Made by a program: the position numbers and the translations under genes
Assembly (NCBI GenBank): GCA_016882195.1
Contig: VGLU01000002.1
Coordinates: 107,884 to 171,883, forward strand
Direction of reading: 5' to 3'
DNA from: Thermoproteota archaeon
Lineage (GTDB): Archaea; Thermoproteota; Methanomethylicia; Methanomethylicales; Methanomethylicaceae
Length of the DNA stretch: 64,000 nucleotides
Part shown: piece by piece, positions 3,736-59,471 of the stretch
How the letters are laid out: each line of letters starts with the position of its first letter
How positions within the stretch are numbered: position 1 is the stretch's first letter
Notes under the pieces: generated by a model
Told to the model about the DNA's origin: nothing
Database searches by the model: none
Seen by the model: only the letters and a program-made list of their open reading frames with translations

Positions 3736-3736
3736 T

Positions 3737-4183: not shown

Positions 4184-4184
4184 C

Positions 4185-9259: not shown

Positions 9260-9436
9260 TACTCATCACCCTTATCTTTTACCGGCGGTTGCCGGACTCA
9301 GACTTTGTGTCGGCAATTTTCGCATCCGAAGCCTTCTGTTTACAGAACAGCAAAATTTCGTTTAATCGTAGGTACATTTCCTTTGCCATAGGTCGAACCC
9401 TGCGTTGTCATACTATATAAACGTTTTCTGCAATTT

Positions 9437-9456
9437 ATAATTATAAATAATTACAA
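9437..9456. promoter_or_regulatory. Tandem direct repeat ATAATTATAA-ATAATTACAA in the divergent acs / usp-actP promoter region
   Basis: Two abutting copies of the 10-mer ATAATTAYAA. The same pair recurs at 14175-14200. Confidence 0.4.
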
Positions 9457-9587
9457 TCATTGATAATGTTTATATACTCAAAGAAATACGCTTTTCGGTA
9501 CTATGACTAAGAACGTATTTCCAAAATTAAGTGTATTCTTTCCATTAATAAGGAGAGATTACCTGATTAAAGAGGCGGCAAAAGTCT

Positions 9588-14330: not shown

Positions 14331-17300
14331 ATGGCATGCGCCGGCAGTAAAAGTCCTCCAAGGCTCGGTCGTGGAACGCACCTTGCTTATATTGCGCCCC
14401 TATTCCTTCTCTTCATAATCTCATTTACGGTCCTGCCCCCTAACCAAGTATTAGTTAGCTGCAACCCGAACGTATCCGCCTCAGAATCAGGTATCATTGC
14501 AAGATATACTGTTGAGATAACTCCTGCCGGGGCGGCCAAGCACGAGGTAAGCGTAAAGGCGGTGATCTCTCTCGGTGTAGCGACCGACCTTACGGTCACT
14601 TCACCAGATCAGGGGTTCAAGGCAAGGTGGATCACCATAGAGAAGTGCTACGACAGCACCAACAGGACAGTCTCGATCGAGCAGGTTGACAACAGGACAT
14701 GGAGGGTGTCTCCCCCCTCCCCCGGCGAGGTCACAATCGAGTACACCGCGTGCGCCGACATACCCAGCTCCATGGCGGTGGGATATTACCTGACGTACCT
14801 CTCGGAGAGCTGTGGGCTGCTGTACGCCAGCGCGATAATTCTCCGCCCGCCCACTCAGGGCGAGGTCGCGGTCAACTTTATAATGCCGTCCGGCTGGTCT
14901 GTAATAGCCGACGAGACGTGGTCTCCTGTCAACTCCACTGCCTTCACCGTCGGGACTGGTGACTTGGAGCTATTCGCCCCTGGCAACTGGTCCGTCTACA
15001 ACGGTACCTTCGGCGACAGCCAGAGGCTAAGGGTCGCGATCTGCGGGACGACAAAGCATGACAAAGGCGTTTACCTCAACAGCATAAAGACATGCTTGGA
15101 CTACTTCCACCAGCACATCGGGAAACTTCCCCAAGAGGAGCTCAATGTGGTGCTAGCAGACCTCCCTCTGCCCATGGACTACATGAGCGGGACGCCGAGG
15201 CTGGCCGTGAACCGCGCCGGCGGTGACTGGGGGATGTTCGAGGGGATGCTCTGGCACTACTGGTTCTTGAGATCGGTGCGCTACGACAGCCAGCTCGACC
15301 AGGACAGGGCGTGGTGGTTCGGCGAGGCGGCGAGCCCCTTCCTGCTCTATCCAGTCTATGAGGCGATAGGGGGGGCTTCGGAAGTCGCGACCGCCTGGGG
15401 CTTCAAGTACAATAACCTCACCTGGAAGAACTGGTACGTGGTGTACGAACAGTACGTAGGAACCAACTACAACATACCACTGGTGGACTACCCGGCGAAG
15501 AACAGGGAGACAGGCGACGTGCAGTACTACTTCCCATTGCCCTACATGAAGGGGTTCTTGGTGTTGCAGATGCTCAACCTCTCGATGGTAGAGGTGACCC
15601 ACGGTACCAAAGACATAAGGGATCTCGTGAAGTACATCTACGAGAACTACGCGGCGAAGGGCATAGGCTACAAGATCGAGGACGTCCTCAATGCGGTAAA
15701 TACCGTGTCCGGAAATAACTACACGGCATTCTTCGAGGCCTACGTATACGGTAATGAGACGCTGCCCATTCTGGAGAAGAGCGGTGACTACCTCTTTGAC
15801 TGGTCGACGTTGGGCGACAAGGCGTACAGAAGCCTCGCAAACACAGAGAAGGCACGGCCTACGCCCCAATATTGGCACGGTCAGGCCCCAGAGGGAGAGA
15901 CGGCAACACTCTTGGAGATGAAGAAGGAGAGCCAGCACTTCACGATCTACTTCCACCAGCAGGATGCTAAGATGGCTGCTCTCCTCCTGTTGGACTCCGA
16001 GAAGGCCTACGATGCCGTCACAAAGATCTATGGAGGCGAGGAGAAGCTCAAGATCAAGATGTTCATGACCTACAACAGTACCGAGTACGCCATACTCGGG
16101 GGCAACCCCAGCGCGGTCTACGACGAGTTCACAAGCGCAGGCGGGGTGGCGGTGGAGGCTGGCGACGAGATAAACTGGCTCAGGCCCATCCCAGACAGAA
16201 CGCAAACGCAGATGTATGATGTGGCAGCCCCCATCCACGAGCTGGGGCACGCCCTCCTGCGCCAAGTTTACCCCAACGTGTACAAGAACTGGGAGCAGTG
16301 GTTCAATGAGGGGATGCCCCTCTCCGAGATGGCATGGCTCGACAGCATGTGGGCTCCAGAAAGCTACTCCCCCTTCGGCGACCATGAGCCCATAAGGCAA
16401 CTTCAGACCTCGCTGATAGGCGGTTCGCCGTCCGTCATAGCGTTAACCCAGCTGGCGAAGATGGACTACGGCTCACTCAACTCCTCCGAGCAGCTACTGT
16501 TTCAGGGGGAGGGCATAACCTTCCACTTCTACATAGTGGCTAGGTACGATAATGGCCTGCAGAGGTTGCTCACTGAGTACAACAGAAGCGTGCCGCTCAG
16601 CATGGCCGCGGAGAGGGCCTTCGGAATAACCTACACAGACCTTGAGAGTGAGCTGTGGGTCACGGCGGAGAGGGCGGCTCTCCGTGTAAACTCCACCGAT
16701 GCGGTCGTCTCAAGAATAAACGGCGAAGGGGTGGACACCGGGCTTGCCGAGAGTTTGAAGCCAGAGGAGCCCTTCCTTGCGTTGCTGGTCGCGTATGCGT
16801 CGGAGACGAAGGCTGGCGTCGGTCCTGAAAAGGTGTTGTTGGGAACCATAGTTCCAGGTAGTTGGACGAGAGCAGACCTGCAAAAGACCGCAATAACGTC
16901 GCTGAACGTGAGTTCAACACAAACAGCCGCGAATGTAACGGTCTTGGTCCAAGAGGTGACGCCTGATGAGATGCCGGCAACCGCTACCGGCGAGGTTTAC
17001 CGGTACATCGAGATGACGGCGAGTGAAGGTGTTGGCCCCGCCATGATAACGTTCAAGGTTGCTAGGGCATGGGTAAACGAACACAGCACGAACAACGCAT
17101 CCATCACCTTAGAGAGGTACGTCTCAAACGATTGGGTCTTACTTTCCACCAAGAAAATCGGTGAAGACGGCGCGTACGCCTACTTCTCCGCGGAATCGCC
17201 GGGGCTGTCAACCTTCTCCATAGCCTCTGTTTCGCCTGCTGATCTGATACTGCCAAACAAAAAGGAGACGGCACACTTCATCTTTTATTTCAACACAACA

Positions 17301-19169
17301 TCTCAAGACTTCGTTGATCAATACAGCAACATCGCAGAAGGCGGCTTCTCCGGATTAGAGGTGATATTTGGCAACCTCTCAGAAAAAATAAAGGTTTACC
17401 TTTGCGAAACCGTTGAGGAGTTCCAGACCACCTCGGGGGGCTCGACGCCGCCAAATTTTGATGACAAGGTTGCGGCGGGGCAGTGTGTTGATGGAAAGGT
17501 TCAGATCTATAAGCCCACCCAGTTCTTTCCGGAAGATTATGCTATCGGCCTTCTTCACGAGATCGGTCACGCAGCATATTGGCAGCTTTATCCAACCGCC
17601 CTTGTTAAGAATAATTGGCTTAATGAAGCCTTGGCGGCGCAATCCATCAGCGGTTCAACCATCAGTTACGTCTGGGATGATGAGGTGAAGGCCGCTTTAG
17701 AGAATGGTACTTTCATACCGCTGGCGACACTTGAGAGTAATGGAGTAAGGAACGCGACTACGGAACACGGAATTAACGGCCCAGAGTACATCTCGCTGGT
17801 CAGCTTCATAGCGGGGGAGTTCGGCTTTGATAAGCTTCGCTCGGTTCTAACCTACTACAACGGGAGCGATAACATGGTCTCCTCCATAGAGAAGGGCACG
17901 GGCGTCAGCGCCGCTGTCTTTGAGCAGCGGTGGACGGCGAAGATAAGGTCCTACACCGCAGGAAACGTAACCGTGCCCACGGTAATAGAGAGCTGGGTCT
18001 CGAAGGAGCAGTTCGGTCAACCGGCGACCGCCTTCCTTCCCTCGGACGGGATATACGTCATGGTACGGAATAACGCCGAGAGCGACGATCAACCACTCGT
18101 AACCGTCCGCTTGGTGGATTCCTACGGGAATAGACTGATCGAGAGGTCATACAACGTACCTGGGCGGCACGGCACGACCGGGTTTGGCGACTATAACCCC
18201 GGGCGGTACATGACGCTTGGCATTTACCGTGTGGAGATCTGGAGCGGCGGCTCTCTGTTGCAGTCGATTGCGATATCCGTATCCACCGTAACAGCTGATA
18301 CCACGCCGCCCACCATAACCATAATCTCACCTGCAAAGGACAGCCTCCTGCAGACCAACTCCGTGTCGGTTAGCGCCTCCTACTCGGACAATGTGGGGAT
18401 TGACGTAAACTCCGTAACTATGAAGATAGACGGAGCGACCGTGACCCCCACCAAATCGCCGAATGGGGTAGAGTACACTGCCCTCCTCTCCGAGGGATCG
18501 CACACCGTTTTCCTCTCCGTGGCGGACACATCTGGCAATACTGCGGTGGCGACCTGGTCATTTACCATAAGCCTGTCATCATCCCAACAAGGTTCCCGCT
18601 GTATAATCGCCACATCGACCTATGGCTCAGAACTTGCACCCCAGGTCCAGTTCCTGAGAGAGTTCAGGGACAACCTTGCGCTAAAGACATTTGCTGGTAG
18701 CAGCTTCATGATGGTCTTCAACGCGTGGTACTACTCTTGGAGTCCTCCTGTTGCTGCCTCGATCGCACCAGATCCTTCCATCAGGGCCGTAATGCGCGTC
18801 ATCCTCCAGCCCCTTCTGAACATCCTTGAGCTGGCCGTGGCTACGTTCTCACTCTTCTCCTTCAATAGCGAACTGGGCATAGCGGTTGCTGGCATAGTCG
18901 CCTCCTCGCTGATAGGGCTCGTCTACTTCATGCCCGCAACCGTGCTGGTTCTCACCACGTTCTGCAGGCGCCGCGGCTCTGTTCCGCCGGTCAGGAAGAT
19001 CACGTTCTTGGTCGTGCCGTGGGCGGCGAGCCTCGTCCTGATCCTAGTGAGCGAGTTCGCCTCGTCGCAACTCCTGATGATGGTGGCTACTGGCACCCTC
19101 GTACTGTCGACAATAGCCCTCGTAGCAGGGGCAGTCTCGCTCGGGATAGCCCGCTATCTGCGGCGGTAA
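14331..19169 (+). CDS. Giant (1612 aa) secreted, membrane-anchored surface glycoprotein with two tandem M1-like gluzincin metallopeptidase motifs
   Basis: N-terminal signal/anchor. HELGHALL...(16 aa)...WFNEGMP and HEIGHAAYWQ...(15 aa)...WLNEALA fit HExxH-x18-E of peptidase family M1. More than 20 N-x-S/T sequons. Ig-like Ser/Thr-rich segment (TTPPTITIISPAKD...). C-terminal CIIATSTYGSELAPQVQFLREFRD motif followed by four or more hydrophobic helices. Confidence 0.7.
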   Translation: MACAGSKSPPRLGRGTHLAYIAPLFLLFIISFTVLPPNQVLVSCNPNVSASESGIIARYTVEITPAGAAKHEVSVKAVISLGVATDLTVTSPDQGFKARWITIEKCYDSTNRTVSIEQVDNRTWRVSPPSPGEVTIEYTACADIPSSMAVGYYLTYLSESCGLLYASAIILRPPTQGEVAVNFIMPSGWSVIADETWSPVNSTAFTVGTGDLELFAPGNWSVYNGTFGDSQRLRVAICGTTKHDKGVYLNSIKTCLDYFHQHIGKLPQEELNVVLADLPLPMDYMSGTPRLAVNRAGGDWGMFEGMLWHYWFLRSVRYDSQLDQDRAWWFGEAASPFLLYPVYEAIGGASEVATAWGFKYNNLTWKNWYVVYEQYVGTNYNIPLVDYPAKNRETGDVQYYFPLPYMKGFLVLQMLNLSMVEVTHGTKDIRDLVKYIYENYAAKGIGYKIEDVLNAVNTVSGNNYTAFFEAYVYGNETLPILEKSGDYLFDWSTLGDKAYRSLANTEKARPTPQYWHGQAPEGETATLLEMKKESQHFTIYFHQQDAKMAALLLLDSEKAYDAVTKIYGGEEKLKIKMFMTYNSTEYAILGGNPSAVYDEFTSAGGVAVEAGDEINWLRPIPDRTQTQMYDVAAPIHELGHALLRQVYPNVYKNWEQWFNEGMPLSEMAWLDSMWAPESYSPFGDHEPIRQLQTSLIGGSPSVIALTQLAKMDYGSLNSSEQLLFQGEGITFHFYIVARYDNGLQRLLTEYNRSVPLSMAAERAFGITYTDLESELWVTAERAALRVNSTDAVVSRINGEGVDTGLAESLKPEEPFLALLVAYASETKAGVGPEKVLLGTIVPGSWTRADLQKTAITSLNVSSTQTAANVTVLVQEVTPDEMPATATGEVYRYIEMTASEGVGPAMITFKVARAWVNEHSTNNASITLERYVSNDWVLLSTKKIGEDGAYAYFSAESPGLSTFSIASVSPADLILPNKKETAHFIFYFNTTSQDFVDQYSNIAEGGFSGLEVIFGNLSEKIKVYLCETVEEFQTTSGGSTPPNFDDKVAAGQCVDGKVQIYKPTQFFPEDYAIGLLHEIGHAAYWQLYPTALVKNNWLNEALAAQSISGSTISYVWDDEVKAALENGTFIPLATLESNGVRNATTEHGINGPEYISLVSFIAGEFGFDKLRSVLTYYNGSDNMVSSIEKGTGVSAAVFEQRWTAKIRSYTAGNVTVPTVIESWVSKEQFGQPATAFLPSDGIYVMVRNNAESDDQPLVTVRLVDSYGNRLIERSYNVPGRHGTTGFGDYNPGRYMTLGIYRVEIWSGGSLLQSIAISVSTVTADTTPPTITIISPAKDSLLQTNSVSVSASYSDNVGIDVNSVTMKIDGATVTPTKSPNGVEYTALLSEGSHTVFLSVADTSGNTAVATWSFTISLSSSQQGSRCIIATSTYGSELAPQVQFLREFRDNLALKTFAGSSFMMVFNAWYYSWSPPVAASIAPDPSIRAVMRVILQPLLNILELAVATFSLFSFNSELGIAVAGIVASSLIGLVYFMPATVLVLTTFCRRRGSVPPVRKITFLVVPWAASLVLILVSEFASSQLLMMVATGTLVLSTIALVAGAVSLGIARYLRR

Positions 19170-29921: not shown

Positions 29922-29952
29922 TTTTTAAACCTCCATCCATTTACCTCCTTTT

Positions 29953-31053
29953 ATGAAACCCTTCCTCGTCATAGCCACGATCAATGAACTCGCCAACCTT
30001 AAGGGGCTGATTGAGGAACTGTGCACCACCTCGACCAAGGTTATAGTCGTAGACGAGGGCGACGAGTCCATCAGGGCTCGGAACGAAAGGATCCTTAAGA
30101 GCGTAAATAGGGCATACTACGGTCCCAGAGAGAGAAGGGAGTGGTTCAGGGAAAGGTTTGGTAAAAACTACGAGAAGTTCCTATCGGTAATTCCTGAAAG
30201 GGCGCACGCAGAGACGAGCTTCGGCTTCCTTGTTGCCTATGAGGAGGGCGCAGACTTCATTATCGAGCTTGATGATGATGTTTTTATGAAAGGCCTAATC
30301 GAAGGTCACAGGTTCAACCTATTCGGCGAGACTGGAGAGACGGTCTCTTCAGGGTCAAGATGGTACAATACCATGGACGCCATTGCTCTGAACGAGAAAG
30401 GCAGGTTCTTCCCGAGGGGGCATCCGTACTCTCCCGAGACCAGGGTCGAGGACTACAAGTGGAGCAAAACAGGTGGCAGATGCGTACTCAATATGGGGCA
30501 CTGGATAGGCAACCCAGACTTCGACGCCCTGACAGTCCTGTACCACGGCGGTCTCGATGGCAGATGTCACATTAAGGGAACCAAGCTAAAGCAAGACAAG
30601 GTGATCCTCGGCAAGGGGACGTACTTTGCCGTCTGTAGCATGAATGCAGCCTTTATACCAAAGGCGGTTCCTGCCTTCTACCAGCTCTACATGAACACGA
30701 TGGGCGTAGACCGGTTCGACGACATATGGTCGGGAATATTCCTGAAGAGGGTGGCGGACCATCTGGGCGACAGAGTATGCCTCGGTAGACCTGTCGGCAT
30801 CCACGACAAGAGACCAAGGAGCATCTTCAAGGACCTGAAGAAGGAGATGGATGGAATGATAATGAACGAAACGGTCTGGCGAATGATGGAAGGTGACATT
30901 GAGGGCACCTCCTACTCCGACGCTTACCTCTCTCTTACACACCTCCTGGAGACTGGAGCCGCGAAACTTGATGACGAAAATTACCGGCGGTTTCTCAGAC
31001 TACAGGTAGAGAAGATGCGTCTCTGGGTCGAGGCAGTGTCCACTATAGGATGA
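29953..31053 (+). CDS. RGP / UDP-L-arabinopyranose mutase (GT75) family protein
   Basis: Collinear motif matches to plant reversibly glycosylated polypeptide, recalled from memory: VIVVDEGDES ~ IIVQDGDPS, IIELDDDVF ~ FTIDDDCFV, FFPRGHPYS ~ FVRGYPFS, RFDDIWSGIF..DHLG ~ RYDDMWAGWC..DHLG. Confidence 0.65.
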   Translation: MKPFLVIATINELANLKGLIEELCTTSTKVIVVDEGDESIRARNERILKSVNRAYYGPRERREWFRERFGKNYEKFLSVIPERAHAETSFGFLVAYEEGADFIIELDDDVFMKGLIEGHRFNLFGETGETVSSGSRWYNTMDAIALNEKGRFFPRGHPYSPETRVEDYKWSKTGGRCVLNMGHWIGNPDFDALTVLYHGGLDGRCHIKGTKLKQDKVILGKGTYFAVCSMNAAFIPKAVPAFYQLYMNTMGVDRFDDIWSGIFLKRVADHLGDRVCLGRPVGIHDKRPRSIFKDLKKEMDGMIMNETVWRMMEGDIEGTSYSDAYLSLTHLLETGAAKLDDENYRRFLRLQVEKMRLWVEAVSTIG

Positions 31054-31531
31054 GCCCGAAACCTAGGACCGCCACGGTCACTATTACAGCTACCCCCAGT
31101 ACACCAAGGACAATTGCGGCAAATGCCCTCTTGATCTCCATGCCAAAAAGGTACGCTATGACGCTGCTGGTCCACGCCCCTGTACCGAGGATGGGCACCG
31201 CAACAAATATCACCAAGCCCCAGAAACCGTACCTGTCAACCTGGGACTTAGACTTCTTTGAGAGACTGAGAATATACCTCACAAATGCCCTCTTCACGGG
31301 GTTTTCGTCTTTTCTCCTCATTATCCATCCTTCGATCTTGCTCAGAAAGATCAACAGGAAGGGCACAGGCAATATGTTGCCAAGGAGCGACACCAGAAAG
31401 ACCGTTGGCACATCAATGCCTGCAAAGATCCCATACGGTATAGATCCCCTACACTCCAAAATTGGCGAAATCGCGATCAGCAAGACGTATAGGATCTGGG
31501 GAACGTCCATCTCTTCAGCCTCTCCTGTCAA
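31043..31531 (-). CDS. Small multi-TM membrane protein (Sm_multidrug_ex / COG2426-like)
   Basis: ISPILECRGSIPYG resembles the conserved E-L-R-G-x-I-P segment of that family. Confidence 0.45.
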   Translation of the reverse strand: MTGEAEEMDVPQILYVLLIAISPILECRGSIPYGIFAGIDVPTVFLVSLLGNILPVPFLLIFLSKIEGWIMRRKDENPVKRAFVRYILSLSKKSKSQVDRYGFWGLVIFVAVPILGTGAWTSSVIAYLFGMEIKRAFAAIVLGVLGVAVIVTVAVLGFGLIL

Positions 31532-31605: not shown

Positions 31606-32358
31606 GTGGCGAGAATGAGGGCTATAATACTGGCTGGTGGCTACGCAAAGCGGCTGTGGCCCCTAACCCTTGAACGACCAAAACCGCTATTGCCGATAGG
31701 CGACGGCTACATCCTTGACTTCATAATTGCAAAAATTAAAGCCATCGAAGAGATCAAGGATATTATTATATCTACCAACAAGCGGTTTGAGGGCAAGTTT
31801 ATCGAATGGGTGAACGAGAGGGGGCATCGCAACATCGCGGTATTCCCCGAACCATCCCTTAAGGAGGAGGAGAAGCTTGGTCCTGTAAAGGCGTTGGATC
31901 TGATTTTGGGGGATGTTGCACCCGATGACTGCCTCATCGCCGCCGGTGACAACCTATTCTCCCTCGACCTAACCAAGATGGTCTACTTTTACACGAAGAT
32001 GAGGTCGCCCGTCATAGCACTCTACGAGGTCGCCAGCCCGGAACTTGCAAAACAGTATGCGTGCGTGGAGCTCGACAAGCAGTCCCGCATAAGGGGTTTC
32101 ACGGAGAAGCCCGCTCAGCCGAGGAGCCTCTTGGCATCTACGGGAATATACCTTCTGCCATGGAGCAGCCTATCAAAAATTAAGGCATACTTGGCGGAGG
32201 GCAATCCGCCTGATCCCATCGGACGATTTATTGGGTGGCTCACAGAGCATGAGCGCGCCTACGGATTCAAGTTCTCGGGCTACTGGTGCGACATAGGTTC
32301 GATGGAGTCCTACAGGTCCGCCCAAGAAGACTTCAAGGGCAGATCATATAGATCCTGA
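31606..32358 (+). CDS. Sugar-1-phosphate nucleotidylyltransferase (NTP_transferase)
   Basis: AIILAGGYAKRLWPLT...KPLLPI signature. Confidence 0.8.
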   Translation: MARMRAIILAGGYAKRLWPLTLERPKPLLPIGDGYILDFIIAKIKAIEEIKDIIISTNKRFEGKFIEWVNERGHRNIAVFPEPSLKEEEKLGPVKALDLILGDVAPDDCLIAAGDNLFSLDLTKMVYFYTKMRSPVIALYEVASPELAKQYACVELDKQSRIRGFTEKPAQPRSLLASTGIYLLPWSSLSKIKAYLAEGNPPDPIGRFIGWLTEHERAYGFKFSGYWCDIGSMESYRSAQEDFKGRSYRS

Positions 32359-32378: not shown

Positions 32379-33368
32379 CTAGCAGCAAGACTGTCGCGAG
32401 TGTTTTCTCTCCCCGCCAATGGGTCCGATCTTCTCCTCGAACCACTCTAAGGTTCTGAGCAGCCCTTCCCTTATGCCCGTCTTCGCCCTCCATCCAAGTT
32501 CTCGCTCTGCCTTGCTGACATCCGGCTGGGTCAGTTCCATGTCGCCAAGCCACGCAACACCACCCCTCGCCGTTACCTCCACACCCCTCAGACCAAGGAT
32601 GCCGAGCATCATCTCCGCCAACTGGAACACGGTATAGGACTCCCCCAAACCGATGTTGTAGGCCTCGCCCTTGCATGCTGCCTTCTCAGGCGCCATCAGG
32701 AGAGCCTCGACTGCGTCGTCTATGTACAGGTAGTCCTTTAACTGATTGCCACTCCCCAACACCTCAAGCCTCCCTGGGTCCCTCAACAGCCTTCTATAAA
32801 GGTCTATCATTACTCCCTTGTTGGTCCCGGGACCATAGATGTTGAAGAGTCGCAGGGTGACGGTTGGCACCCCGAACAACTCGCTATAAACCCTGCAGTA
32901 GTTCTCAGCCGCCATCTTTGACAGCCCGTAGAAGGAGTAGGGCACCAGGGACTCGTCCTCCGGCGTCGGGGTCTTGTTCACCCTCCCGTAGACAGCCGCC
33001 GATGAGGCAAAAACGACCTTACTTCCAGAATCCTTGGCAGCTCTTAAAACGTTTAGAGTTCCCTCTATATTGATCTCCATGTCCAGGTCTGGCCTCTCTG
33101 TTGAAACTGGCACGAGCGACTGTGCTGCTAGGTGATAGATCAGGTTACATCCCTTCGCCGCCTCGCTGACCGCCCTTGCGTCCCTGACATCCCCCTTGAC
33201 GAACTCCACAGCCCCTGTCTTGATCAGTTCTGATATGTTCGAAAGGCTACCTGTTGAGAGATCATCAAGTACCCTGACGAGATCTCCCCTCTCCACGAGG
33301 CGCCCTATTAGTTTTGGACCTATGAACCCTGCCCCCCCAGTCACGAGAACCAGCAATGGCAATGGCAC
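32379..33368 (-). CDS. NAD-dependent nucleotide-sugar epimerase/dehydratase (SDR)
   Basis: [11 protein letters not shown] Rossmann motif, YxxxK region. Confidence 0.8.
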   Translation of the reverse strand: MPLPLLVLVTGGAGFIGPKLIGRLVERGDLVRVLDDLSTGSLSNISELIKTGAVEFVKGDVRDARAVSEAAKGCNLIYHLAAQSLVPVSTERPDLDMEINIEGTLNVLRAAKDSGSKVVFASSAAVYGRVNKTPTPEDESLVPYSFYGLSKMAAENYCRVYSELFGVPTVTLRLFNIYGPGTNKGVMIDLYRRLLRDPGRLEVLGSGNQLKDYLYIDDAVEALLMAPEKAACKGEAYNIGLGESYTVFQLAEMMLGILGLRGVEVTARGGVAWLGDMELTQPDVSKAERELGWRAKTGIREGLLRTLEWFEEKIGPIGGERKHSRQSCC

Positions 33369-33551: not shown

Positions 33552-34742
33552 TTGCAGAAAGGATCTAACTTGAGATACTTCACGAGCCCATACAACTTTC
33601 TCCAGCAGGAGTGTAGGAGGGTCAAGATCTATGATACTACGCTCAGAGACGGTGAGCAGACCCCAGGCGTAAAGTTCACCAAAGAGCAGAAGGTACAGAT
33701 CGCCAAGAAGCTTGACGAGCTGGGGGTGAACACCATTGAGGCAGGCTTCCCAGTGATCTCTCCCTTTGATGAGGAGGCCGTTAAGGCCGTTGCATCTGAA
33801 CGCCTCAGCGCCGACGTTATCTGCCTCTGTCGATCGAAGCAGAAGGACATAGACGCTGCGCTGAGGGCTGACGTTGATGGTGTTATAATATTCCTCGCGG
33901 TTTCTGATCTGCACCTAAAGTATAAACTCCACACGGATCTGATGAGCGCTGTAAATATGGCGGCAGAGTCCATCACGTACGCCAAGAGTCATGGGCTCTT
34001 CGTGCAGCTCTCGGCCGAGGACGCAACAAGGACCTCCATGGATTCTCTGACCGCCCTCTACAGCGCTGCCGAGGAGAGGGGGGCGGACAGGCTGGGCATA
34101 GCGGACACCACCGGCTGCATAAGGCCGAGAGGAATGTATTACTTGGTAGAGTCTCTAAGGAAGATCTTTGATCTGGAGCTCTCCGTACACTGCCACGATG
34201 ACTTCGGTCTAGCCGTGGCGAACTCCCTTGCAGCCTACGAGGCCGGCATCGATGCGATCTCGGTCTCGGTCAACGGTCTCGGGGAGAGGTGTGGGAATGC
34301 CTCTCTGGAGGAGGTGGTGATGTCCCTCTACGCTTTATACGGGGTGGATCTCAAGTTCAGAATCAAGGCGTTAAGGGAACTCTCCGAAATGGTGTCCCGA
34401 TTCTCCGGCGTCCCAATACCAATCAACAAGGCGGTAGTAGGAACAAACGCCTTTAGGCACGAGTCAGGCATACACGTTGCTGCCATAATGAAGAACCCGT
34501 TTACCTACGAATCCTATGAGCCACAGCTGGTTGGGCAGGAGAGGGCATTGGTGTTCGGCAGGCACTCTGGAACAGATGGTGTAAGGCTGAAGATCGAATC
34601 CCTCGGCTACAAGGTTACCGATGAGGAACTTGCCGAAATAATCAAGAGATTAAAAACATTGCCAATAGATGCCCCCATTATAGACAACAGTAGTCTCTGC
34701 AACTTCGTAAAGAAGGTGCTCTCTGAGAGGACTCAAAGGTGA
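33552..34742 (+). CDS. Short 2-oxoacid:acetyl-CoA condensing enzyme (homocitrate/citramalate/isopropylmalate synthase family, AksA/NifV-like, no regulatory domain)
   Basis: VKIYDTTLRDGEQTPGV and HCHDDFGLAVANSLAA DRE-TIM motifs. 396 aa, which is too short for LeuA. TTG start per the ORF track. Confidence 0.75.
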   Translation: MQKGSNLRYFTSPYNFLQQECRRVKIYDTTLRDGEQTPGVKFTKEQKVQIAKKLDELGVNTIEAGFPVISPFDEEAVKAVASERLSADVICLCRSKQKDIDAALRADVDGVIIFLAVSDLHLKYKLHTDLMSAVNMAAESITYAKSHGLFVQLSAEDATRTSMDSLTALYSAAEERGADRLGIADTTGCIRPRGMYYLVESLRKIFDLELSVHCHDDFGLAVANSLAAYEAGIDAISVSVNGLGERCGNASLEEVVMSLYALYGVDLKFRIKALRELSEMVSRFSGVPIPINKAVVGTNAFRHESGIHVAAIMKNPFTYESYEPQLVGQERALVFGRHSGTDGVRLKIESLGYKVTDEELAEIIKRLKTLPIDAPIIDNSSLCNFVKKVLSERTQR

Positions 34743-35569
34743 GCAACAACCTCTACTCCCTGGCAACATCTAATAGAGCAAAGGTGGCCATAGGGGTCGA
34801 CTCAAAACTGCCATCCGCAGAGATGGTCATTAACTCCGCCCTCTTTGCCAGGAGGGAGGGCTATGCAGAGCCCGTGCTGATTTCCGACGGAAAGATAAGC
34901 GACGTTCTCTCGCCCGGTGGGATCGTTGGTAATGAGATACCACTCATAATAGACAAAACTCCGGAGAGGACCTTCGTGGAACTCTTGAAGGAGGGTGCTG
35001 TGGACGTCGCCGTCAGGGGGAACCTCGGCTCCAGAATACTCATCCCGCTACTTCGCTCAGAGTTCAAATGTAAGAACCTATGCCGCGTGACGATTCTCGA
35101 TGTTGGTGGCAGGCTTGTAATGCTAGCCCCCGTGGGGATAGAGGAGGGAGACTCACTGGAGGACCTGCTGACAATAGCCAGGCACTGCATGTGGCTTGCT
35201 GTAAAATTAGGCATTCCGTATAAGATAGCGGTTCTCTCGGGCGGCAGGATCGAGGATAAGGGACGCAGCAAGAAGGTTGACAGAATGCTCTCCACGTCGG
35301 CTTTGCTGACGCGTACCCTTAGGAAAAAGGGAATGGACGCAGAGAACTTCGGCATTGAGCTGGAGAGGGGTGTGGATGGCGACGCCACTCTGCTCTTAGC
35401 CCCAGATGGCATCCTCGGGAACATTATCTTCAGATCCCTCGTTCTTGTGGCAAACGTGGAGAGCTTCGGTGCCTATGCTGCGGCACTTCCAAGGGTTTAT
35501 ATCGACACCTCAAGGGCAAAGGCCAGTTACTTATTACCGATAATCCTTGCCAGCGCGCTCAGTAAATAA
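34739..35569 (+). CDS. PTA/PTB (phosphate acyltransferase fold)-like protein, function unknown
   Basis: VAIGVDSKLPSAEMVINSALFARREGYAEPVLISDG resembles the N-terminus of phosphotransacetylase-family proteins. Confidence 0.4.
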   Translation: MSNNLYSLATSNRAKVAIGVDSKLPSAEMVINSALFARREGYAEPVLISDGKISDVLSPGGIVGNEIPLIIDKTPERTFVELLKEGAVDVAVRGNLGSRILIPLLRSEFKCKNLCRVTILDVGGRLVMLAPVGIEEGDSLEDLLTIARHCMWLAVKLGIPYKIAVLSGGRIEDKGRSKKVDRMLSTSALLTRTLRKKGMDAENFGIELERGVDGDATLLLAPDGILGNIIFRSLVLVANVESFGAYAAALPRVYIDTSRAKASYLLPIILASALSK

Positions 35570-35676
35570 CTGGCGATTGAGCGCTAGAACAGATTTCTGG
35601 CAATAACATTGAAAAGGGATCATGCTCTACGACAACTAAAAATATTCGCCCACCTTGTTAATAAGATGAGGTTCCA

Positions 35677-36915
35677 ATGTTGGGCAGCACTGCCGTAGAG
35701 AAGATCATCGCCAACGCTGTCGGTCGGAGGGTCCGCGTGGGGGAGTTCGTTGAGGTCCCCGTGGACTTCTCATACTTCCACGACGGAACGGGTCCGTTGA
35801 TCATCGACGCACTCAAGAGGATGGGCGTTGAGAAGATCAAGGATCCAGACAGGGTGGGTATAGTTTTTGACCACTCGGTGCCCCCCTACAGCGACCAGGC
35901 GGCAACGCTCCAGGCAAAGGTGAGGAAGTTCGCAAGGGATCAGGGCATACCAAAGTTCCACGACTTAGGGGAGGGGATCTGCCACCAAGTCGTACCAGAG
36001 ATGGGATACGTCTCACCGGGCATGGTAGTTATAGGGGCGGACTCGCACAGCTGCACGCTCGGATGCTTCGGTCTCTTCTCAACGGGGGTCGGAGCCACCG
36101 ACCTTGCCTACATATTGGCAACGGGAAGGATCTGGCTGAAGGTTCCCGAGACCCTTGGGATAGACTGCAAAGGAAGGCTGAGCGGGAAGGTCTCGTCCAA
36201 GGACCTCATACTTGAGATAGTGCGAATGGTGGGAACCGATGGCGCAACCTACAAGGCGCTCGAGTTCTCCGGAGCGGCAGTCAGACATATGTCCCAGTCC
36301 TCTAGGATGACCGTGTCCAACATGGCGGTGGAGATGGGGGCAAAGACGGGGTTCATAGAGGCCGACTTGAAGACCTTTGAGTTTCTGGGGAGGGAGGGGA
36401 AGACCTTCAGGACCGATACCAAAGTGGAGAGGATAAGGGTGGACGCGGGGTCCCTCGAACCAAAGGTCGCATGCCCCGGCAGTGTTGCGAACGTGAAACC
36501 CGTCTATGAGGTTGAGGGCACCCACATCGACCAAGCGTTCTTGGGCTCCTGCACCAACGGAAGGTACGAGGATCTGTTCGAGGCCGCAAAGATTGTAAGG
36601 GGAAGGAAGGTTCACAGGGATACGCGCTTCATAGTGATCCCGGCGTCCAAGTCCACCTACCTGAAGGCTCAGAAGGACGGTCTAATGGACATATTCTTGA
36701 AAGCCGGGGCCATAATAGGCGTCACGGGCTGCGGACCGTGCCTTGGGGTCCACATGGGTGTTCTTGGCGATAATGAGGTATGCATCTCAACGTCGAACAG
36801 GAACTTCATCGGAAGGATGGGTAGCGTCAAGTCCTCGGTCTACCTGGCATCGGCGCAGACCGTGGCTGCCTCCGCGGTTGAGGGCAGGATCACCGACCCA
36901 AGGAGGTTCTCTTAA
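35677..36915 (+). CDS. 3-isopropylmalate/homoaconitate dehydratase large subunit (LeuC/HacA-like)
   Basis: Aconitase-family motifs with Fe-S cysteines ([25 protein letters not shown]). Confidence 0.8.
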
Positions 36916-37400
36916 TGATAAAGGGAAGTGTATGGAAGTTCGGGGACGATGTGGATACCGACGTGATAATACCCGCGAAGTACCTGCGGTCGGTTGATCA
37001 GACGGTCTGGCCGAAGCACCTCCTCGAGGGGCTGGATCCGACATTCAGCTCCAAGGTTAAGACAGGGAACATAATCGTCGCTGGCAGGAACTTCGGCTGC
37101 GGATCCAGCAGGGAGCAGGCCGCGCTCGCCATAAAGTGGGCGGGGGTCTCCGCCGTCGTTGCAGAATCCTTCGCCAGGATATTCTTCCGGAATGCGATAA
37201 ACAACGGGCTGCCTTTGGTAGAGTGCAAGGGCATAAGCAAGGCCGTTGACGAGGGGGACGTCATAGAGATAGACCTCGACAGCGGCAATGTAAAAACAAA
37301 GAAGGGCATCCTAAGATCATCGCCGCTCCCTCCCTTCCTCAAGGAGATACTGAAGAGCGGCGGTCTGGTGGAGTATTACAAAGCAAAGAGGGCGGTGTGA
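36915..37400 (+). CDS. 3-isopropylmalate/homoaconitate dehydratase small subunit (LeuD/HacB-like)
   Basis: 161-aa aconitase swivel domain ([26 protein letters not shown]). Start overlaps the leuC-like stop. Confidence 0.8.
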
Positions 37401-42124: not shown

Positions 42125-43234
42125 TCACGGGTTCTTCTTAGTCTTCTTTATTATCTCAGCCATCCTGTCCAAGTCTTTCTCTGTTACAGCGGGGTTAACA
42201 GGCAGAGATAGCACTGTCTGGGCCGCCCTCTCCGACGCGGGTAGCTTCAATGTTCCGTAGCCGAGGCCTGCATAGAGGGGGATTCTGTGGACCGGTGTCG
42301 GGTAATAAACAGTTGCCCCTATCCCTCCCTCTAGGAGCCTCGACATGAATCTCTCCCTCTCCGCTGCCGTTTTGCACCTAACCGTGAATAGATACCAATT
42401 ATGCCTGCAATACTCTGGTACCTCTGGCAGCACTAACCCTGCCCCATCCAGTTTTTCCTTCAGCGCATTTGCGTTCCTAGCCCTCGCTGCGAGAAAGCCT
42501 GGAAGCTTCTTCAGCTGCGCCCTACCTATGGCTGCCTCTATCTCCGGCATCCTGAAATTTCCGCCGAGGATCACGGAGTCGTTGCCCTTCACCTGGCCGT
42601 GCGTCCTTATCCTCCCCAGCTTCTCGGCCAGCGCATCGTCGTCCGTTATTATCGCGCCCCCCTCCCCAGTGGTCATTACCTTTGTCGGGTAGAAGCTGAG
42701 GCAGCCTATGTCTCCCAAGGTCCCCGCCATCCTTCCCCTGTAGGAGGCTCCTAGGGCTTGGCAGGCGTCCTCTATAACCGTGATCCCGTGCTCCTCGGCA
42801 ATCTCCCCAATCTCATCCATCTCGGCAGGAAGACCGTACAGGTCAACGGGGATCACTGCCTTTGTCCTCTTGGTTATCACCTTCTTGAAGGCCCTTGGCA
42901 TCATGTTGTAGCTACTCAGGTCGATGTCCACAAAGACAGGCTTTGCCCCGGCTAAGACGGCGGCACCCGCGGTGGCCGCAAAGGTAAAGGATGGCATGAC
43001 CACCTCGTCCCCTAGCCTGATCCCCGATGCCAAGAGCGCCGTGTGGAGGGCAGCCGTCCCTGAGTTGACCGCAACAACATGCCTCGCGTTAAGGTGTCTC
43101 GCCAGCTCCCTCTCGAAGGCCCTGACATTCGGCCCGCCCTCAGGGGAGGAGTTCGTCATGATGCCGCCCTCTATAACCTTCAGAACCCCCTCCTTCTCCT
43201 CAACCCCGAGCAATGGCTTGTTTATTGGCAGCAT
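42125..43234 (-). CDS. DegT/DnrJ/EryC1/StrS family PLP-dependent sugar aminotransferase (WbpE-like)
   Basis: PLP-fold, ~370 aa, conserved Lys region (SFYPTKVMTTGEGG). Confidence 0.8.
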   Translation of the reverse strand: MLPINKPLLGVEEKEGVLKVIEGGIMTNSSPEGGPNVRAFERELARHLNARHVVAVNSGTAALHTALLASGIRLGDEVVMPSFTFAATAGAAVLAGAKPVFVDIDLSSYNMMPRAFKKVITKRTKAVIPVDLYGLPAEMDEIGEIAEEHGITVIEDACQALGASYRGRMAGTLGDIGCLSFYPTKVMTTGEGGAIITDDDALAEKLGRIRTHGQVKGNDSVILGGNFRMPEIEAAIGRAQLKKLPGFLAARARNANALKEKLDGAGLVLPEVPEYCRHNWYLFTVRCKTAAERERFMSRLLEGGIGATVYYPTPVHRIPLYAGLGYGTLKLPASERAAQTVLSLPVNPAVTEKDLDRMAEIIKKTKKNP

Positions 43235-43283
43235 TGCCGCTCACACGGGATAAATTGTCCTGTCTACCTATTAATCGTTTGAG

Positions 43284-43982
43284 TTATTGTTGGGACAGGT
43301 AGTCCCTCTGCTTCCTGTTGTACTCTTCCCTGCTCATTATGACCTTCGCCGGGACGCCCAGCACGACGGTTCTTGGTTGGACGTCCTTGGTGACGATGGC
43401 CCCAGCGCCTATCATCGCCCCCTCGCCCACCCGGATGCCTGCTATGAGGACCGCCCTCGACCCCACCGCGGCGTTGTCCTCTATGGTTACGCCGGAGACT
43501 TTGGGCGATGGCGGATACCTGTCGTTCGTCACCGTAACGTAGGGGCCCATGAAGACGTTGGATCCTATGACCGTCCCGGGCGGTATGTAGACCCCCGTCT
43601 GTATGTTGTTCTTACCGCCTATCTTCACGTTGCCGTCTATCACCGTGTAAGTACCGATCCTAGTCCCGTTCCCTATGACCGTTCCCTCCCTGATCAGGAC
43701 GCCGTGGCCCGTCTCAATGTTGTCCCCGATCTGGGTGCCCTCGTACACGATGCTTCCGGCCCTGATCACGCATCCCCTTCCTATGGTGCTGCCCTCGCTA
43801 ACGCCGTCATAAGCCTCGAATGTCGGCTTCTCAAGGCTCAGTACCTTCTTCTGGACGGGATACCCGATGATGACCCCGTCCCCTATGACCGTCTTAGCCC
43901 CTATACGCGTGGACCCTAGGATCCTCGCCTCGCCCTCCAAGAGCCCTCCAATTTTTGCCCTCTTGGATATGTACAATAGCAT
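43284..43982 (-). CDS. Hexapeptide-repeat sugar N-acetyltransferase (WbpD/PglD-like)
   Basis: Left-handed beta-helix hexapeptide repeats throughout. Confidence 0.75.
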   Translation of the reverse strand: MLLYISKRAKIGGLLEGEARILGSTRIGAKTVIGDGVIIGYPVQKKVLSLEKPTFEAYDGVSEGSTIGRGCVIRAGSIVYEGTQIGDNIETGHGVLIREGTVIGNGTRIGTYTVIDGNVKIGGKNNIQTGVYIPPGTVIGSNVFMGPYVTVTNDRYPPSPKVSGVTIEDNAAVGSRAVLIAGIRVGEGAMIGAGAIVTKDVQPRTVVLGVPAKVIMSREEYNRKQRDYLSQQ

Positions 43983-44036
43983 CCCTTCTCGCGTCAGGGA
44001 GATTCTCTATCCGATCTTATTTATAAAAAAGGCGTT

Positions 44037-45389
44037 TCAAGCGCCGGGCCTTCCGATTCCGCTATAGAGGCTCCCGCGTGGCAGCCTTGCCGGATCCAGC
44101 ACATTCTTTCCGTCCACCACTGTCAGCCTCTTCTTGCACCATCCAAGGTCTAGGCTCTTGAACTCCCTGTGGTCTGTGGCCACAACCAATGCGTCGGCCC
44201 ATTCTACAATCTCCTGCAGGCTCCTGCACGTCTCCACACCGTTCATGCTCCTGATGAGCGGGTCATACGCCCTCACGCCGGCAACCTTCCCCCTCAGAAG
44301 ATTGATAAAGTCCATGGCAGGCGAGAGTCTGGCGTCCTTTACATCGCCCCTGAACGCCAACCCGAGCACCCCAACCTTGGCATCCTTCATCCCGATCCCT
44401 GCCCTCCTCAAGGCCTTCTTGAGCAGTCCGAGGGTGTACTCGGGCATCCCCTCGTTCGTCTCCCTCGCCCTTCTGGTGATCTCAAGTGTTAGCCCTGCCC
44501 TCTCGGCCACATCCATCAGGAAGTAGGGGTAAACCGGAATGCACAACCCTCCGACCCCTATTCCGGGCAGGTGGAGGTGACAGAAGGGCTGACTGTTGGC
44601 CGCCCTCCTCGCCTCTATAAAGTCGATGCTGAGGGCGTCACAGAGCTTTGCGAACTCGTTGGCGAGGGCTATGTTGGCGTCCCTGTAGACCCCCTCAAAT
44701 ATCTTTGATGCCTCCGCCTCCCTAGCGCTGGCGAGCTTTATCACCCCTTTCTTGGCGATGCCCTCGTAGAGCGCCGCCACCGTCTCGGTGCTCCTCGGGC
44801 CAACGCCGCCGACGACCTTCGGGTAGTTCACCTCGATGTCCTGAAGCGCCCTGCCCTCATAGATCCTCTCCGGGCTGTAAGCAAGACCAAAGTCCCTCTC
44901 AGCCGTAAGTCCGCTCTCCTCCTCCAATATGGGCTTTGCAAGACCCTCCGTGGTCAGGGGAGGCACCGTGCACTCTATTATCACAACGTCACCCGGCTTG
45001 AGGCCCTTCCCGATGCTCCTGATGACTGACTCCATGTTCCTGTTGTCGAGCCTCTTATGGGTGTTCAGGGTCGTGGGTATGACGACTATCTTTACGTCTG
45101 ACCTCCTGGAGCCGTCGGTGCCGTCCGTGGTCGCGGAGAACCTCCCCTCCGCAATCCCCTTCCTGATCCCCTCCTCTATCCCCGGCTCGTCGTCAAAGGG
45201 GATAATGCCTCTGTTCAGCCCATCAACAAGATCCACGTTTATATCCACGCCTATGACCTTAGCACCCGCCCTCAGCCAGGCCACCGCTATGGGCGATCCC
45301 ACCCTTCCCATGCCATAGACCGCTGTTGTGATACTCCCCTCAGCGAGTGCCCTCTTCAGATCTTCAGGCGCCCTACCGAGTAGCCTCAT
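44037..45389 (-). CDS. UDP-N-acetyl-hexosamine 6-dehydrogenase (UDP-glucose/GDP-mannose dehydrogenase family, WbpA/WecC-like)
   Basis: AVYGMGRVGSPIAVAW NAD motif and catalytic Cys region. Start probably MRLLG at 45389; the ORF track runs on to 45482. Confidence 0.75.
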   Translation of the reverse strand: MRLLGRAPEDLKRALAEGSITTAVYGMGRVGSPIAVAWLRAGAKVIGVDINVDLVDGLNRGIIPFDDEPGIEEGIRKGIAEGRFSATTDGTDGSRRSDVKIVVIPTTLNTHKRLDNRNMESVIRSIGKGLKPGDVVIIECTVPPLTTEGLAKPILEEESGLTAERDFGLAYSPERIYEGRALQDIEVNYPKVVGGVGPRSTETVAALYEGIAKKGVIKLASAREAEASKIFEGVYRDANIALANEFAKLCDALSIDFIEARRAANSQPFCHLHLPGIGVGGLCIPVYPYFLMDVAERAGLTLEITRRARETNEGMPEYTLGLLKKALRRAGIGMKDAKVGVLGLAFRGDVKDARLSPAMDFINLLRGKVAGVRAYDPLIRSMNGVETCRSLQEIVEWADALVVATDHREFKSLDLGWCKKRLTVVDGKNVLDPARLPRGSLYSGIGRPGA

Positions 45390-46303
45390 CCGGCACCCCT
45401 CCTCAAAGCGGTCAAAGCCACCTTCAGGTTCATCAACCCCTCTCTTCCATCCACCAGCGGCCTCTTTTTCTTGCTCACACACTCGATAAAGTGCTCCAGC
45501 TCCACCTTGAGTGGCTCCTTCTTGTTCACGTCCACCGTACGCCTCGTCGCGCCGCTGCAGACCTCGATGCTCTGTTGTATGTAGTCTAGGCAGACCATGG
45601 CCTCCGAGCCCGTGGCCACGAGGGTCCTCACCTTGTACGGCGTGAATCGGCTGGCCTCTATACTGGCTATGGTCTCCCCGTAGTCTAGGAGTATGAGCGC
45701 GTAATCCTCCACATCCCGTCTGTACTTACCATAACCCGCATAGACGGCCTTCGGCTCCCTTCCGACCAGGAACCGCGTGACGTCGATATCATGGGTTGCC
45801 AGATCCACTATTATTCCAACATCCTTTATTCTGGGAGAGAACGGTCCGGAGCGCTTGGTGGACAGAATGAAGAGCCTGCCGAGCTCCCCCGCCTGTATCA
45901 TCTCCTTCAGCTTCAGGACCGCAGGGTTGAACCTCTCTATGTGCCCCACCATCAAGATCGCTCCACCCTTCTTGGCGGCCATGATTATTGCCTCGGCGTC
46001 CTTGATCGTAGGGGCGATCGGCTTCTCGACGAGGCAACTTATCCCCTCCCTCAGGAAGATGGGCGTAACCTCCTTATGCAGCGATGTAGGCACGGCGATG
46101 CTAACGGCGTCCGGTCTCTGTCTTACCATCTCATCGATGGAATCGATCACTACCGTTCCGTACGCGCTGGCCACCTCTCTTGCACGCGCGTCGTCTTTAT
46201 CAACAATGCCGATGAGTTTGCAGTTTTTAATCTCCGAGTATACCCTGGCATGGTGTTGGCCCATCATCCCCACGCCAACTATGCCAACCCGCAACGCCGC
46301 CAC
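45386..46303 (-). CDS. Gfo/Idh/MocA oxidoreductase (WbpB-like UDP-GlcNAcA 3-dehydrogenase)
   Basis: LRVGIVGVGMMGQHHARVY N-terminal Rossmann motif; 305 aa. Confidence 0.7.
   Translation of the reverse strand: MAALRVGIVGVGMMGQHHARVYSEIKNCKLIGIVDKDDARAREVASAYGTVVIDSIDEMVRQRPDAVSIAVPTSLHKEVTPIFLREGISCLVEKPIAPTIKDAEAIIMAAKKGGAILMVGHIERFNPAVLKLKEMIQAGELGRLFILSTKRSGPFSPRIKDVGIIVDLATHDIDVTRFLVGREPKAVYAGYGKYRRDVEDYALILLDYGETIASIEASRFTPYKVRTLVATGSEAMVCLDYIQQSIEVCSGATRRTVDVNKKEPLKVELEHFIECVSKKKRPLVDGREGLMNLKVALTALRRGAG

Positions 46304-56631: not shown

Positions 56632-59471
<2,840 letters not shown>

Follow-up and report, generated by a model that had tools for sequence, protein, structure and literature searches.

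A predicted metal-dependent, flavin-independent NDP-sugar pyranose/furanose mutase of an archaeal His85/Met230 subfamily of GT75 in a Methanomethylicaceae genome

Two types of enzyme are known for furanose sugars, and work on the type that depends on a metal and an arginine, family GT75, has been confined to plants and to two antibiotic pathways of actinomycetes. Its sole characterised non-plant members as of 2023 are MtdL of Marinactinospora thermotolerans (PDB 7XPR-7XPV and 7YUA) and Hyg20 of Streptomyces hygroscopicus, bacterial pyranose mutases of guanosine diphosphate (GDP)-L-galactose and GDP-L-fucose (PMC9937993). Here, we describe a GT75 gene at positions 29953..31053 (forward strand) of a 64,000-nucleotide stretch, hereafter the window, from contig VGLU01000002.1 of a Thermoproteota archaeon in the family Methanomethylicaceae. 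Its product is predicted to be a metal-dependent, flavin-independent nucleoside diphosphate (NDP)-sugar pyranose/furanose mutase of an archaeal subfamily marked by His85 and Met230. We infer the mutase activity by analogy with MtdL, and assign a probability of about 0.68 to the reading that the gene encodes a cytoplasmic GT75 enzyme of this kind that depends on Mn2+ or Mg2+. A first-pass annotation of this DNA had proposed an archaeal GT75 homologue here. An archaeal copy is not novel in itself, since CAZy already held 43 archaeal GT75 sequences in 2019 (PMC6861824) and the existence of an archaeal subfamily is recorded in both Pfam and CAZy; the window protein is an uncharacterised addition to a known family.

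The open reading frame (ORF) is uninterrupted, starts with ATG and encodes 366 residues. A Pfam-A scan matched the protein to one family only, the reversibly glycosylated polypeptides (RGP; PF03214), with E=2.3e-16; its score of 60.3 bits compares with a gathering cut-off of 23.8, and the match spans residues 85-361, equivalent to profile positions 77-336 of 342. The same scan gave no GLF or flavin adenine dinucleotide (FAD)-binding match, and an NCBIfam scan of the protein gave no usable model or name. When used as a phmmer query against the PDB, it returned GT75 proteins exclusively: the bacterial NDP-pyranose mutase MtdL (7XPR-7XPV, 7YUA and 8HL8; E=1e-29 for the single sequence, improving to 9e-40 when a 28-sequence profile was used) and 8CID, named as a "UDP-arabinopyranose mutase" (7e-5 and 1.9e-11, respectively; UDP, uridine diphosphate). 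Moreover, precomputed PF03214 annotation was present on 120 of 120 homologues among the matches listed. By these comparisons, the family match is far beyond chance. The first-pass annotation had recognised the gene by motifs shared with plant RGP and UDP-arabinopyranose mutase (UAM) proteins. Both stretches that it quoted occur in the translation, FIIELDDDVF at residues 102-111 and RFDDIWSGIFLKRVADHLG at residues 254-272, and the significant matches to PF03214 and MtdL confirm the family that it had proposed. An opposite-strand ORF inside the gene (30586-30942) is presumably just a side effect of the coding frame.

An AlphaFold2 model of the protein (from alignment A1) reached a mean predicted local distance difference test score (pLDDT) of 90.1 and a predicted template modelling (TM) score (pTM) of 0.90, and contains the three-region fold of an N-terminal GT-A Rossmann-like domain, a family-specific core and a C-terminal helical domain. 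Foldseek superposed the model on MtdL (7xps_B) over its full length of ~370 residues, with a TM score of 0.89, a root-mean-square deviation of 2.5 A and 26% identity. The match to rice UAM2 (8CID) had a TM score of 0.66 (E=1e-14), GT-A proteins were the sole fold matches, and generic GT-A folds did not exceed 0.39. Because the MtdL superposition is full-length, the N-terminal ~80 residues, which HMMER did not align, also appear to fit the family fold.

Functional residues were taken as defined by crystallography and mutagenesis of MtdL (PMC9937993) and mapped through the HMMER alignment, in which the first ~78 residues remained unaligned to MtdL, so that the mapping of the N-terminal base contacts comes from a MAFFT family alignment alone. 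Conservation was assessed across 236 full-length relatives (119 close and 117 distant) aligned with MAFFT, and gene context in 64 loci from GTDB species representatives. The DDD (DxD) motif, Asp107-Asp108-Asp109 (30271..30279, forward strand like all codons given below), corresponds to MtdL Asp109-111, which binds Mn2+ and the diphosphate, and is invariant in the close homologues and kept in 116-117 of the distant ones. Arg155 in FPRGHP (30415..30417) corresponds to MtdL Arg159 and to the autoglycosylated arginine of plant UAMs, the proposed nucleophile on the anomeric carbon, and is invariant in all 236 homologues. Asp189 (30517..30519) is the counterpart of MtdL Asp195, which contacts the catalytic arginine; in Arg254-Phe-Asp-Asp257 (30712..30723), Arg254 is the counterpart of Arg257, which binds the beta-phosphate and the sugar, and Asp257 that of Asp260, the proposed general base; His284 (30802..30804) is the counterpart of His287, the second Mn2+ ligand. 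Asp189, Arg254, Asp257 and His284 are invariant in the close homologues and almost invariant in the distant ones, and every archaeal locus keeps the whole set, including the DDD motif and Arg155. MtdL variants R159K, D195N, R257K and D260N are each without activity, and the inactive AtRGP5 lacks the equivalents of Arg257 and His287 (PMC9937993). According to this mapping, all residues that MtdL needs for catalysis and for metal and phosphate binding are present in the window protein, and its retention of Arg254 and His284, lost in AtRGP5, argues that it is not a degenerate paralogue.

By analogy with MtdL, Asp109 (with Asp107 through a water molecule) and His284 would hold the metal that grips the diphosphate, and Arg254 would bind the sugar as well as the beta-phosphate. 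With Asp257 and Asp189 as its activators, the guanidinium of Arg155 would attack C1 and displace the NDP to form a covalent arginyl-sugar, the ring would open and reclose through O4, and re-attack by the NDP would release the NDP-furanose. A glycosyltransferase could then build the furanose into a glycolipid or a surface glycan, a task that in sister lineages would fall to the GT2 enzyme encoded directly downstream.

The positions linked to substrate in MtdL give a different picture from the catalytic set. In the MtdL-to-window direction, the changes are Thr13 to Ala8, Asp40 to Glu35, Asn42 to Asp37, Ser86 to Ala84, Asp87 to His85 (codon 30205..30207), Arg90 to Thr88, Asn112 to Val110, Gln229 to Met230, Arg289 to Lys286 and His292 to Arg289. 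Position 85 is the sugar-specificity position and is occupied by Ser91 in AtRGP2. Every TACK and Asgard locus has His85, as do all 119 close homologues, and Met230 is likewise invariant in the close homologues; together with Thr88 and Val110 they are the archaeal subfamily's own states at the specificity positions. Position 85, with its invariant histidine in the aligned archaeal clade, is the most telling of the substrate-linked positions. Three groups could be distinguished by these residues: (i) an MtdL-type group with Thr/Arg/Asn/Gln/His at positions 8/88/110/230/289 and Asp, Ile or Val at 85; (ii) a plant-type group with Pro/Ser/Lys-or-Arg/Cys/Met at positions 8/85/88/110/230, which includes the Patescibacteria (L061) and Planctomycetota (L063) loci; (iii) a window-type group with Ala-or-Pro/His/Thr/Val/Met/Arg at positions 8/85/88/110/230/289, which comprises every Methanomethylicia, Bathyarchaeia, Sulfolobales/Desulfurococcales and Thermofilaceae locus and the Asgard Borrarchaeum (Thr at 110).

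A rough neighbour-joining tree recovers the window-type clade as a coherent group, and its members score a median of 125 bits (28% identity) against the MtdL-type group and 128 bits (31% identity) against the plant-type group. Judged from these alignments, the window protein belongs to a third, archaeal GT75 subfamily that is about equidistant from the MtdL-type (GDP-sugar) and plant-type (UDP-sugar) groups. A closer affinity to bacterial MtdL than to the plant enzymes, suggested by the PDB search (E=1e-29 versus 7e-5), was withdrawn: the large gap arises because the sole plant structure, 8CID, is the divergent class-2 UAM2 of rice, and local scoring placed the two groups at equal distance. 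The description of the gene as an archaeal homologue of plant RGP therefore holds at the level of the family (PF03214, with an intact catalytic set) but not as a specifically plant-like relationship, and the label "eukaryote-like" is misleading for a member of a coherent archaeal clade whose closest solved structure is that of bacterial MtdL.

Relatives of the protein are numerous. A word-indexed search returned 955, nearly all annotated as "hypothetical protein", of which the best, from a metagenome, is 88% identical. Named relatives include Methanomethylicus, Methanosuratus and Methanomethyliaceae (62-72%), followed by Bathyarchaeia, Baldrarchaeia and Nitrososphaeria (52-58%). When 50%-identity representatives were searched exhaustively, 1110 clusters passed E<=1e-3, 590 of them with E<=1e-10. 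Orthologues with 72-73% identity occur in the complete genomes of Ca. Methanosuratincola petrocarbonis LWZ-6 (CP130488; L002) and Ca. M. verstraetei LCB70 (CP186953; L010), which we take to be those of recently cultured strains. Two contigs (L009 and L012) of one metagenome-assembled genome (MAG), Ca. Methanosuratincola sp. GD_Cm_T35_P0_bin.90, each carry an M20-GT75 gene pair, a double copy that reflects either a duplication or a mixed bin.

In the window, an M20 (DapE/ArgE-like) deacylase gene lies 31 nt 5' of the GT75 gene, and a convergent PF06695 membrane-protein gene (31043-31531, reverse strand) overlaps it by 11 nt at its own 3' end. About 550 nt beyond the GT75 gene is the gene for a 250-residue sugar-1-phosphate nucleotidyltransferase (31606..32358, forward strand; PF00483, E=8e-38), which is RmlA-like by PDB search, has every NCBIfam match far below cut-off and is a candidate supplier of the NDP-sugar. 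It is followed by the gene for a 329-residue GalE-like short-chain dehydrogenase/reductase (SDR; 32379..33368, reverse strand; PF01370, E=3e-56), and both genes lie within 2.4 kb of GT75. The SDR contains SSAAVYG and YxxxK and lacks the Asp-Glu dehydratase pair; by these motifs it is probably an NDP-hexose 4-epimerase, and it is a candidate maker of the mutase substrate. Its best PDB match (E=1e-60) is the GDP-sugar 4-epimerase PhGal4E_1, which prefers GDP-sugars including GDP-L-fucose and has Pro80, Arg83, Tyr145, Asn174 and His182 as key residues (PMC12171764). Three of these five differ in the SDR (Pro80 to Ser, Arg83 to Pro and His182 to Lys), the Tyr and Asn being kept; its identification as a GDP-sugar 4-epimerase was rejected on these grounds, and the match was not used to assign the nucleotide. 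A full GDP-L-galactose route through ManC, GDP-mannose 3,5-epimerase and the mutase, as reportedly found in A201A biosynthesis, was also rejected: GDP-mannose 3,5-epimerase was absent from the 54 PDB matches of the SDR, which were 4,6-dehydratases and 4-epimerases.

The gene had been described as standing at the head of a glycan island, next to a pyrophosphorylase and an epimerase. Both neighbours are indeed near, but the three genes do not form a single operon, since the convergent gene at 31043-31531 intervenes and the epimerase gene is on the opposite strand. Nor is the GT75 gene at the head of the island: the small cluster occupies 29.9-33.4 kb and the true island 41.6-64 kb, with ~8 kb of unrelated genes between them (33.5-41.2 kb; homocitrate-synthase-like, aconitase-like, thiamine pyrophosphate (TPP)-enzyme, TiaS-like and GMC-oxidoreductase genes). 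No Glf-type flavoenzyme was found among the ORFs scanned in the window, a 64-kb stretch that leaves room for one elsewhere in the genome. Given the intact GT75 gene, the nearby sugar genes and the lack of a Glf gene among those ORFs, a role in NDP-furanose formation is the best reading, and the earlier proposal of a furanose made by GT75 rather than by Glf stands in this respect, without its eukaryotic label.

In the comparison of the 64 loci, the order M20-GT75-PF06695-nucleotidyltransferase-SDR was found in 15-20 Methanomethylicia loci and nowhere else, with a nucleotidyltransferase orthologue <=2.6 kb from GT75 in 17 loci of this class and an SDR orthologue <=3.4 kb away in 15. Because it is confined to one class, this order is indistinguishable from inherited gene order; elsewhere, GT75 is accompanied by a GT2 gene or lies in a glycosyltransferase operon. 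A same-strand GT2 (PF00535) gene was found 0-41 bp 3' of GT75 orthologues that share the window-type signature in 21 archaeal loci, which are mostly of Bathyarchaeia and include a deep Methanomethylicia branch (L025), and the same pairing in the Patescibacteria and Planctomycetota loci, which carry plant-type GT75, brings the total to 23. In a Thermofilaceae MAG (L056:9111-14554), the gene is part of a same-strand GT2-GT75-GT1-GT1-GT1 block. The recurrence of GT75-glycosyltransferase pairing across distant lineages and two subfamilies provides the best contextual support for a donor-supplying role, and the partner GT2 is a candidate for a dedicated furanosyltransferase family. The partner proteins are ~340 residues long (L021-L047, e.g. 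L021:11120-12142; L025:1373-2401; L061:10788-11786; L063:3173-4096). Their identification as recognisable galactofuranosyltransferases was tried and dropped, as only generic GT2 matches were obtained.

The simplest local route would convert glucose-1-phosphate to NDP-glucose by the nucleotidyltransferase, then to NDP-galactose by the GalE-like SDR and finally to NDP-galactofuranose by GT75. NDP-D-galactose supplied by these two neighbours is our best guess for the substrate, a tentative one that is less likely than not to be right. Among prokaryotic furanoses, D-galactofuranose is the commonest, and some archaeal glycoconjugates are reported to contain it. GDP-L-fucose from the Gmd and Fcl-like enzymes of the island is possible as a substrate but is disfavoured by the non-MtdL specificity residues, and UDP-L-arabinose is unlikely. 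A bolder and more doubtful proposal is that the His85/Met230 clade makes an NDP-furanose other than UDP-L-arabinofuranose, UDP-galactofuranose, GDP-L-galactofuranose and GDP-L-fucofuranose, that it provides a main, flavin-independent furanose route in these archaea, and that the adjacent GT2 constitutes a new furanosyltransferase family. Literature searches gave nothing useful on the origin of archaeal furanoses.

Three other explanations were weighed against mutase activity of the proposed kind. GT75 enzymes autoglycosylate the same conserved arginine, and with some substrates this is their sole activity (PMC9937993), which would allow the window protein to be a self-glycosylating protein, or an arginine/acceptor glycosyltransferase, that lacks mutase activity, like plant class-2 RGPs or AtRGP2 on UDP-glucose, and that may prime or regulate glycan synthesis. 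The GT-A-like fold, the placement beside glycosyltransferase genes and the presence of His85 and Met230 at the specificity positions would agree with such a protein. It is nevertheless an unlikely explanation, given that the two residues missing from inactive AtRGP5 are invariant here, that the full mutase residue set is retained across >50% sequence divergence, and that the sole solved class-2 protein, rice UAM2, resembles the model far less closely (TM 0.66) than active MtdL does (0.89).

The other two explanations concern the substrate. MtdL is the closest solved structure, the window encodes a Gmd (461 bits) with an adjacent Fcl-like SDR at 57476-59471, and PhGal4E_1, to which the neighbouring SDR is closest among characterised enzymes, has a preference for GDP-sugars, GDP-L-fucose among them (PMC12171764), all of which would agree with a mutase of the MtdL and Hyg20 kind that acts on GDP-L-fucose or GDP-L-galactose and is supplied by these island genes. 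The binding site speaks for the contrary: the guanine-selectivity residues Thr13, Asn42 and Ser86 of MtdL and Hyg20 are replaced by Ala8, Asp37 and Ala84 (by the MAFFT mapping alone), the essential sugar-site residues Asp87 and Gln229 by His85 and Met230, and His292 by Arg289, and D87S, D87N and Q229A each inactivate MtdL (PMC9937993). Moreover, the gmd gene is ~27 kb away, none of the 64 loci has a linked Gmd orthologue (there were only weak cross-matches to the SDR), the SDR lacks three of the five PhGal4E_1 key residues and the clade is equally near the plant-type and MtdL-type groups, which together make this substrate class improbable. A plant-style UDP-L-arabinopyranose mutase, as the first-pass annotation implied, is less probable still and can be given very little credence. 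Met230 and Asp37 are the plant states, and in the rough tree the archaeal clade falls closer to the plant-type grade than to the MtdL-type clade, but the plant class-1 signature of Ser91 and of Pro and Asp at the base-selectivity positions is not kept. Plant Pro13, Asp86, Ser87 and Gly228 (MtdL numbering) correspond to Ala8, Ala84, His85 and Ser229, and S91D and S91Y, at the position equivalent to His85, inactivate AtRGP2 (PMC9937993). In addition, no pair of UDP-xylose synthase and UDP-xylose 4-epimerase was identified beside the GT75 gene.

Several observations weigh against the preferred reading, that of an NDP-sugar pyranose/furanose mutase. Literature searches gave no characterised archaeal GT75 and no activity data for any (cf. 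PMC9937993), MtdL chemistry would have to be extrapolated across ~26% identity, and some GT75 proteins only autoglycosylate. The specificity positions are unlike those of both characterised groups, with His85 in place of Asp87/Ser91 and Met230 in place of Gln229, whose replacement by alanine inactivates MtdL. In Methanomethylicia, the gene order may simply have been inherited and need not signal a functional link, and the neighbourhood also includes the M20 deacylase and the membrane protein, which have no obvious sugar role. The Sulfolobales GT75 gene (L048) lies among branched-chain amino-acid transporter genes. A search of the window for an orthologue of the partner GT2 yielded no clear one, the best candidate (52659-53639) having <=27% identity.

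A candidate archaeal TATA box, TTTTTAAA, is located at 29922..29929 (forward strand), 24 nt 5' of the ATG, and a TTTTAA-type box occurs at the same distance in most Methanomethylicales loci. This TTTTTAAA box suggests that GT75 is transcribed from a promoter of its own into an mRNA with a short leader or none; scans of the sequence for sigma-70 promoters and terminators remained at background level.

The surface-glycan island (41642-64000) is low in G+C over much of its length (0.43-0.49 versus 0.53-0.58 in the flanks). It encodes an Alg14-like protein, two DegT aminotransferases, a hexapeptide acetyltransferase, a UDP-sugar dehydrogenase, a Gfo/Idh/MocA oxidoreductase, GT4 (GPT/AglH-like), GT1 and GT2 transferases, three methyltransferases and further SDRs, in addition to the Gmd (PF16363) mentioned above. 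The gene set at 42125-46303 resembles that by which WbpA/B/E/D make di-N-acetylated glucuronic acid. At 53740-55143 lies the gene for a B12-binding radical SAM enzyme, and a 515-residue ORF without a Pfam match (60625-62172) could, by its position, be a polymerase- or flippase-like membrane protein. Between the small cluster and the island, a block at 33552-37400 contains a homocitrate/isopropylmalate-synthase-like gene, a 276-residue ORF without a Pfam match and genes for large and small aconitase-family subunits. It is syntenic with the GT75 region in Methanomethylicia and, in a methanogen-related lineage, could belong to a 2-oxoacid elongation (coenzyme B) pathway or to lysine/leucine biosynthesis. 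In the first part of the window, a complex-I/Mbh-like module (876-7015, reverse strand) includes a 654-residue ORF with an unusual fusion of a Complex1_30kDa-like segment, Fer4_20 and Pyr_redox_2 (GltD-like); this ORF overlaps the next by ~215 nt, which leaves the start codons uncertain. An acetyl-CoA synthetase-like gene beside a Usp-DUF485 fusion and an SSF-family symporter (7292-11811) looks like an acetate uptake/activation module, and a 1612-residue ORF (14331-19169) with weak peptidase MA/M61-like and Big_7 matches probably encodes a large protease that is secreted or sits at the cell surface.

This result leaves the accepted view of the GT75 family as it was. On the bolder reading given above, the archaeal subfamily would represent a main, flavin-independent route to surface-glycan furanoses in largely uncultured archaea (Methanomethylicia, Bathyarchaeia, Thermoprotei and an Asgard lineage). 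The subfamily combines a complete catalytic apparatus with invariant residues of its own, at positions where mutagenesis bars exchange between the known groups, and with genetic coupling to glycosyltransferases; from its specificity residues one would expect a substrate that neither characterised group reveals. Provided that the Methanosuratincola strains are in culture, as we presume, the substrate and a furanose-containing glycan would be directly testable with their orthologues. Archaeal surface-glycan biosynthesis would thereby gain a further step, and a thermostable catalyst for rare NDP-furanoses could become available.

Among known systems, MtdL and Hyg20 share with the window protein the three-part fold, the DDD motif, the nucleophilic arginine, two catalytic aspartates, the phosphate-binding arginine, the metal-binding histidine and the absence of a flavin-binding domain. 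They are only ~26% identical to it and differ at nine specificity positions (Ala8, Asp37, Ala84, His85, Thr88, Val110, Met230, Lys286 and Arg289 in the window protein), and the window gene lies on an archaeal chromosome in the vicinity of genes for primary metabolism and surface glycans, instead of being part of an antibiotic cluster. Plant class-1 UAM/RGP proteins (OsUAM1 and AtRGP1-3) belong to the same Pfam and CAZy family and have the same set of catalytic Arg, DDD, Asp, Arg and His, as well as Met after Ser/Gly at positions 229-230 and Asp at the Asn42 position; unlike them, the window protein has His85 for the essential Ser91, Ala8 for Pro, Ala84 for Asp and Val110 for Cys, and only ~30% identity to plant-type relatives. 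The plant states beyond those given in the MtdL study rest partly on what we take the plant sequences to be. Rice UAM2 (8CID), a plant class-2 GT75 that is presumably non-catalytic, is of the same family, but its structural match is far weaker than that of MtdL, and the window protein keeps Arg254 and His284, which are absent from class-2 AtRGP5. Finally, Glf (UGM), the flavoenzyme that makes UDP-galactofuranose in bacteria, fungi and protozoa, carries out the same kind of sugar-nucleotide ring contraction and would be a functional analogue, with an unrelated fold and an FAD cofactor in place of the metal and arginine of GT75.

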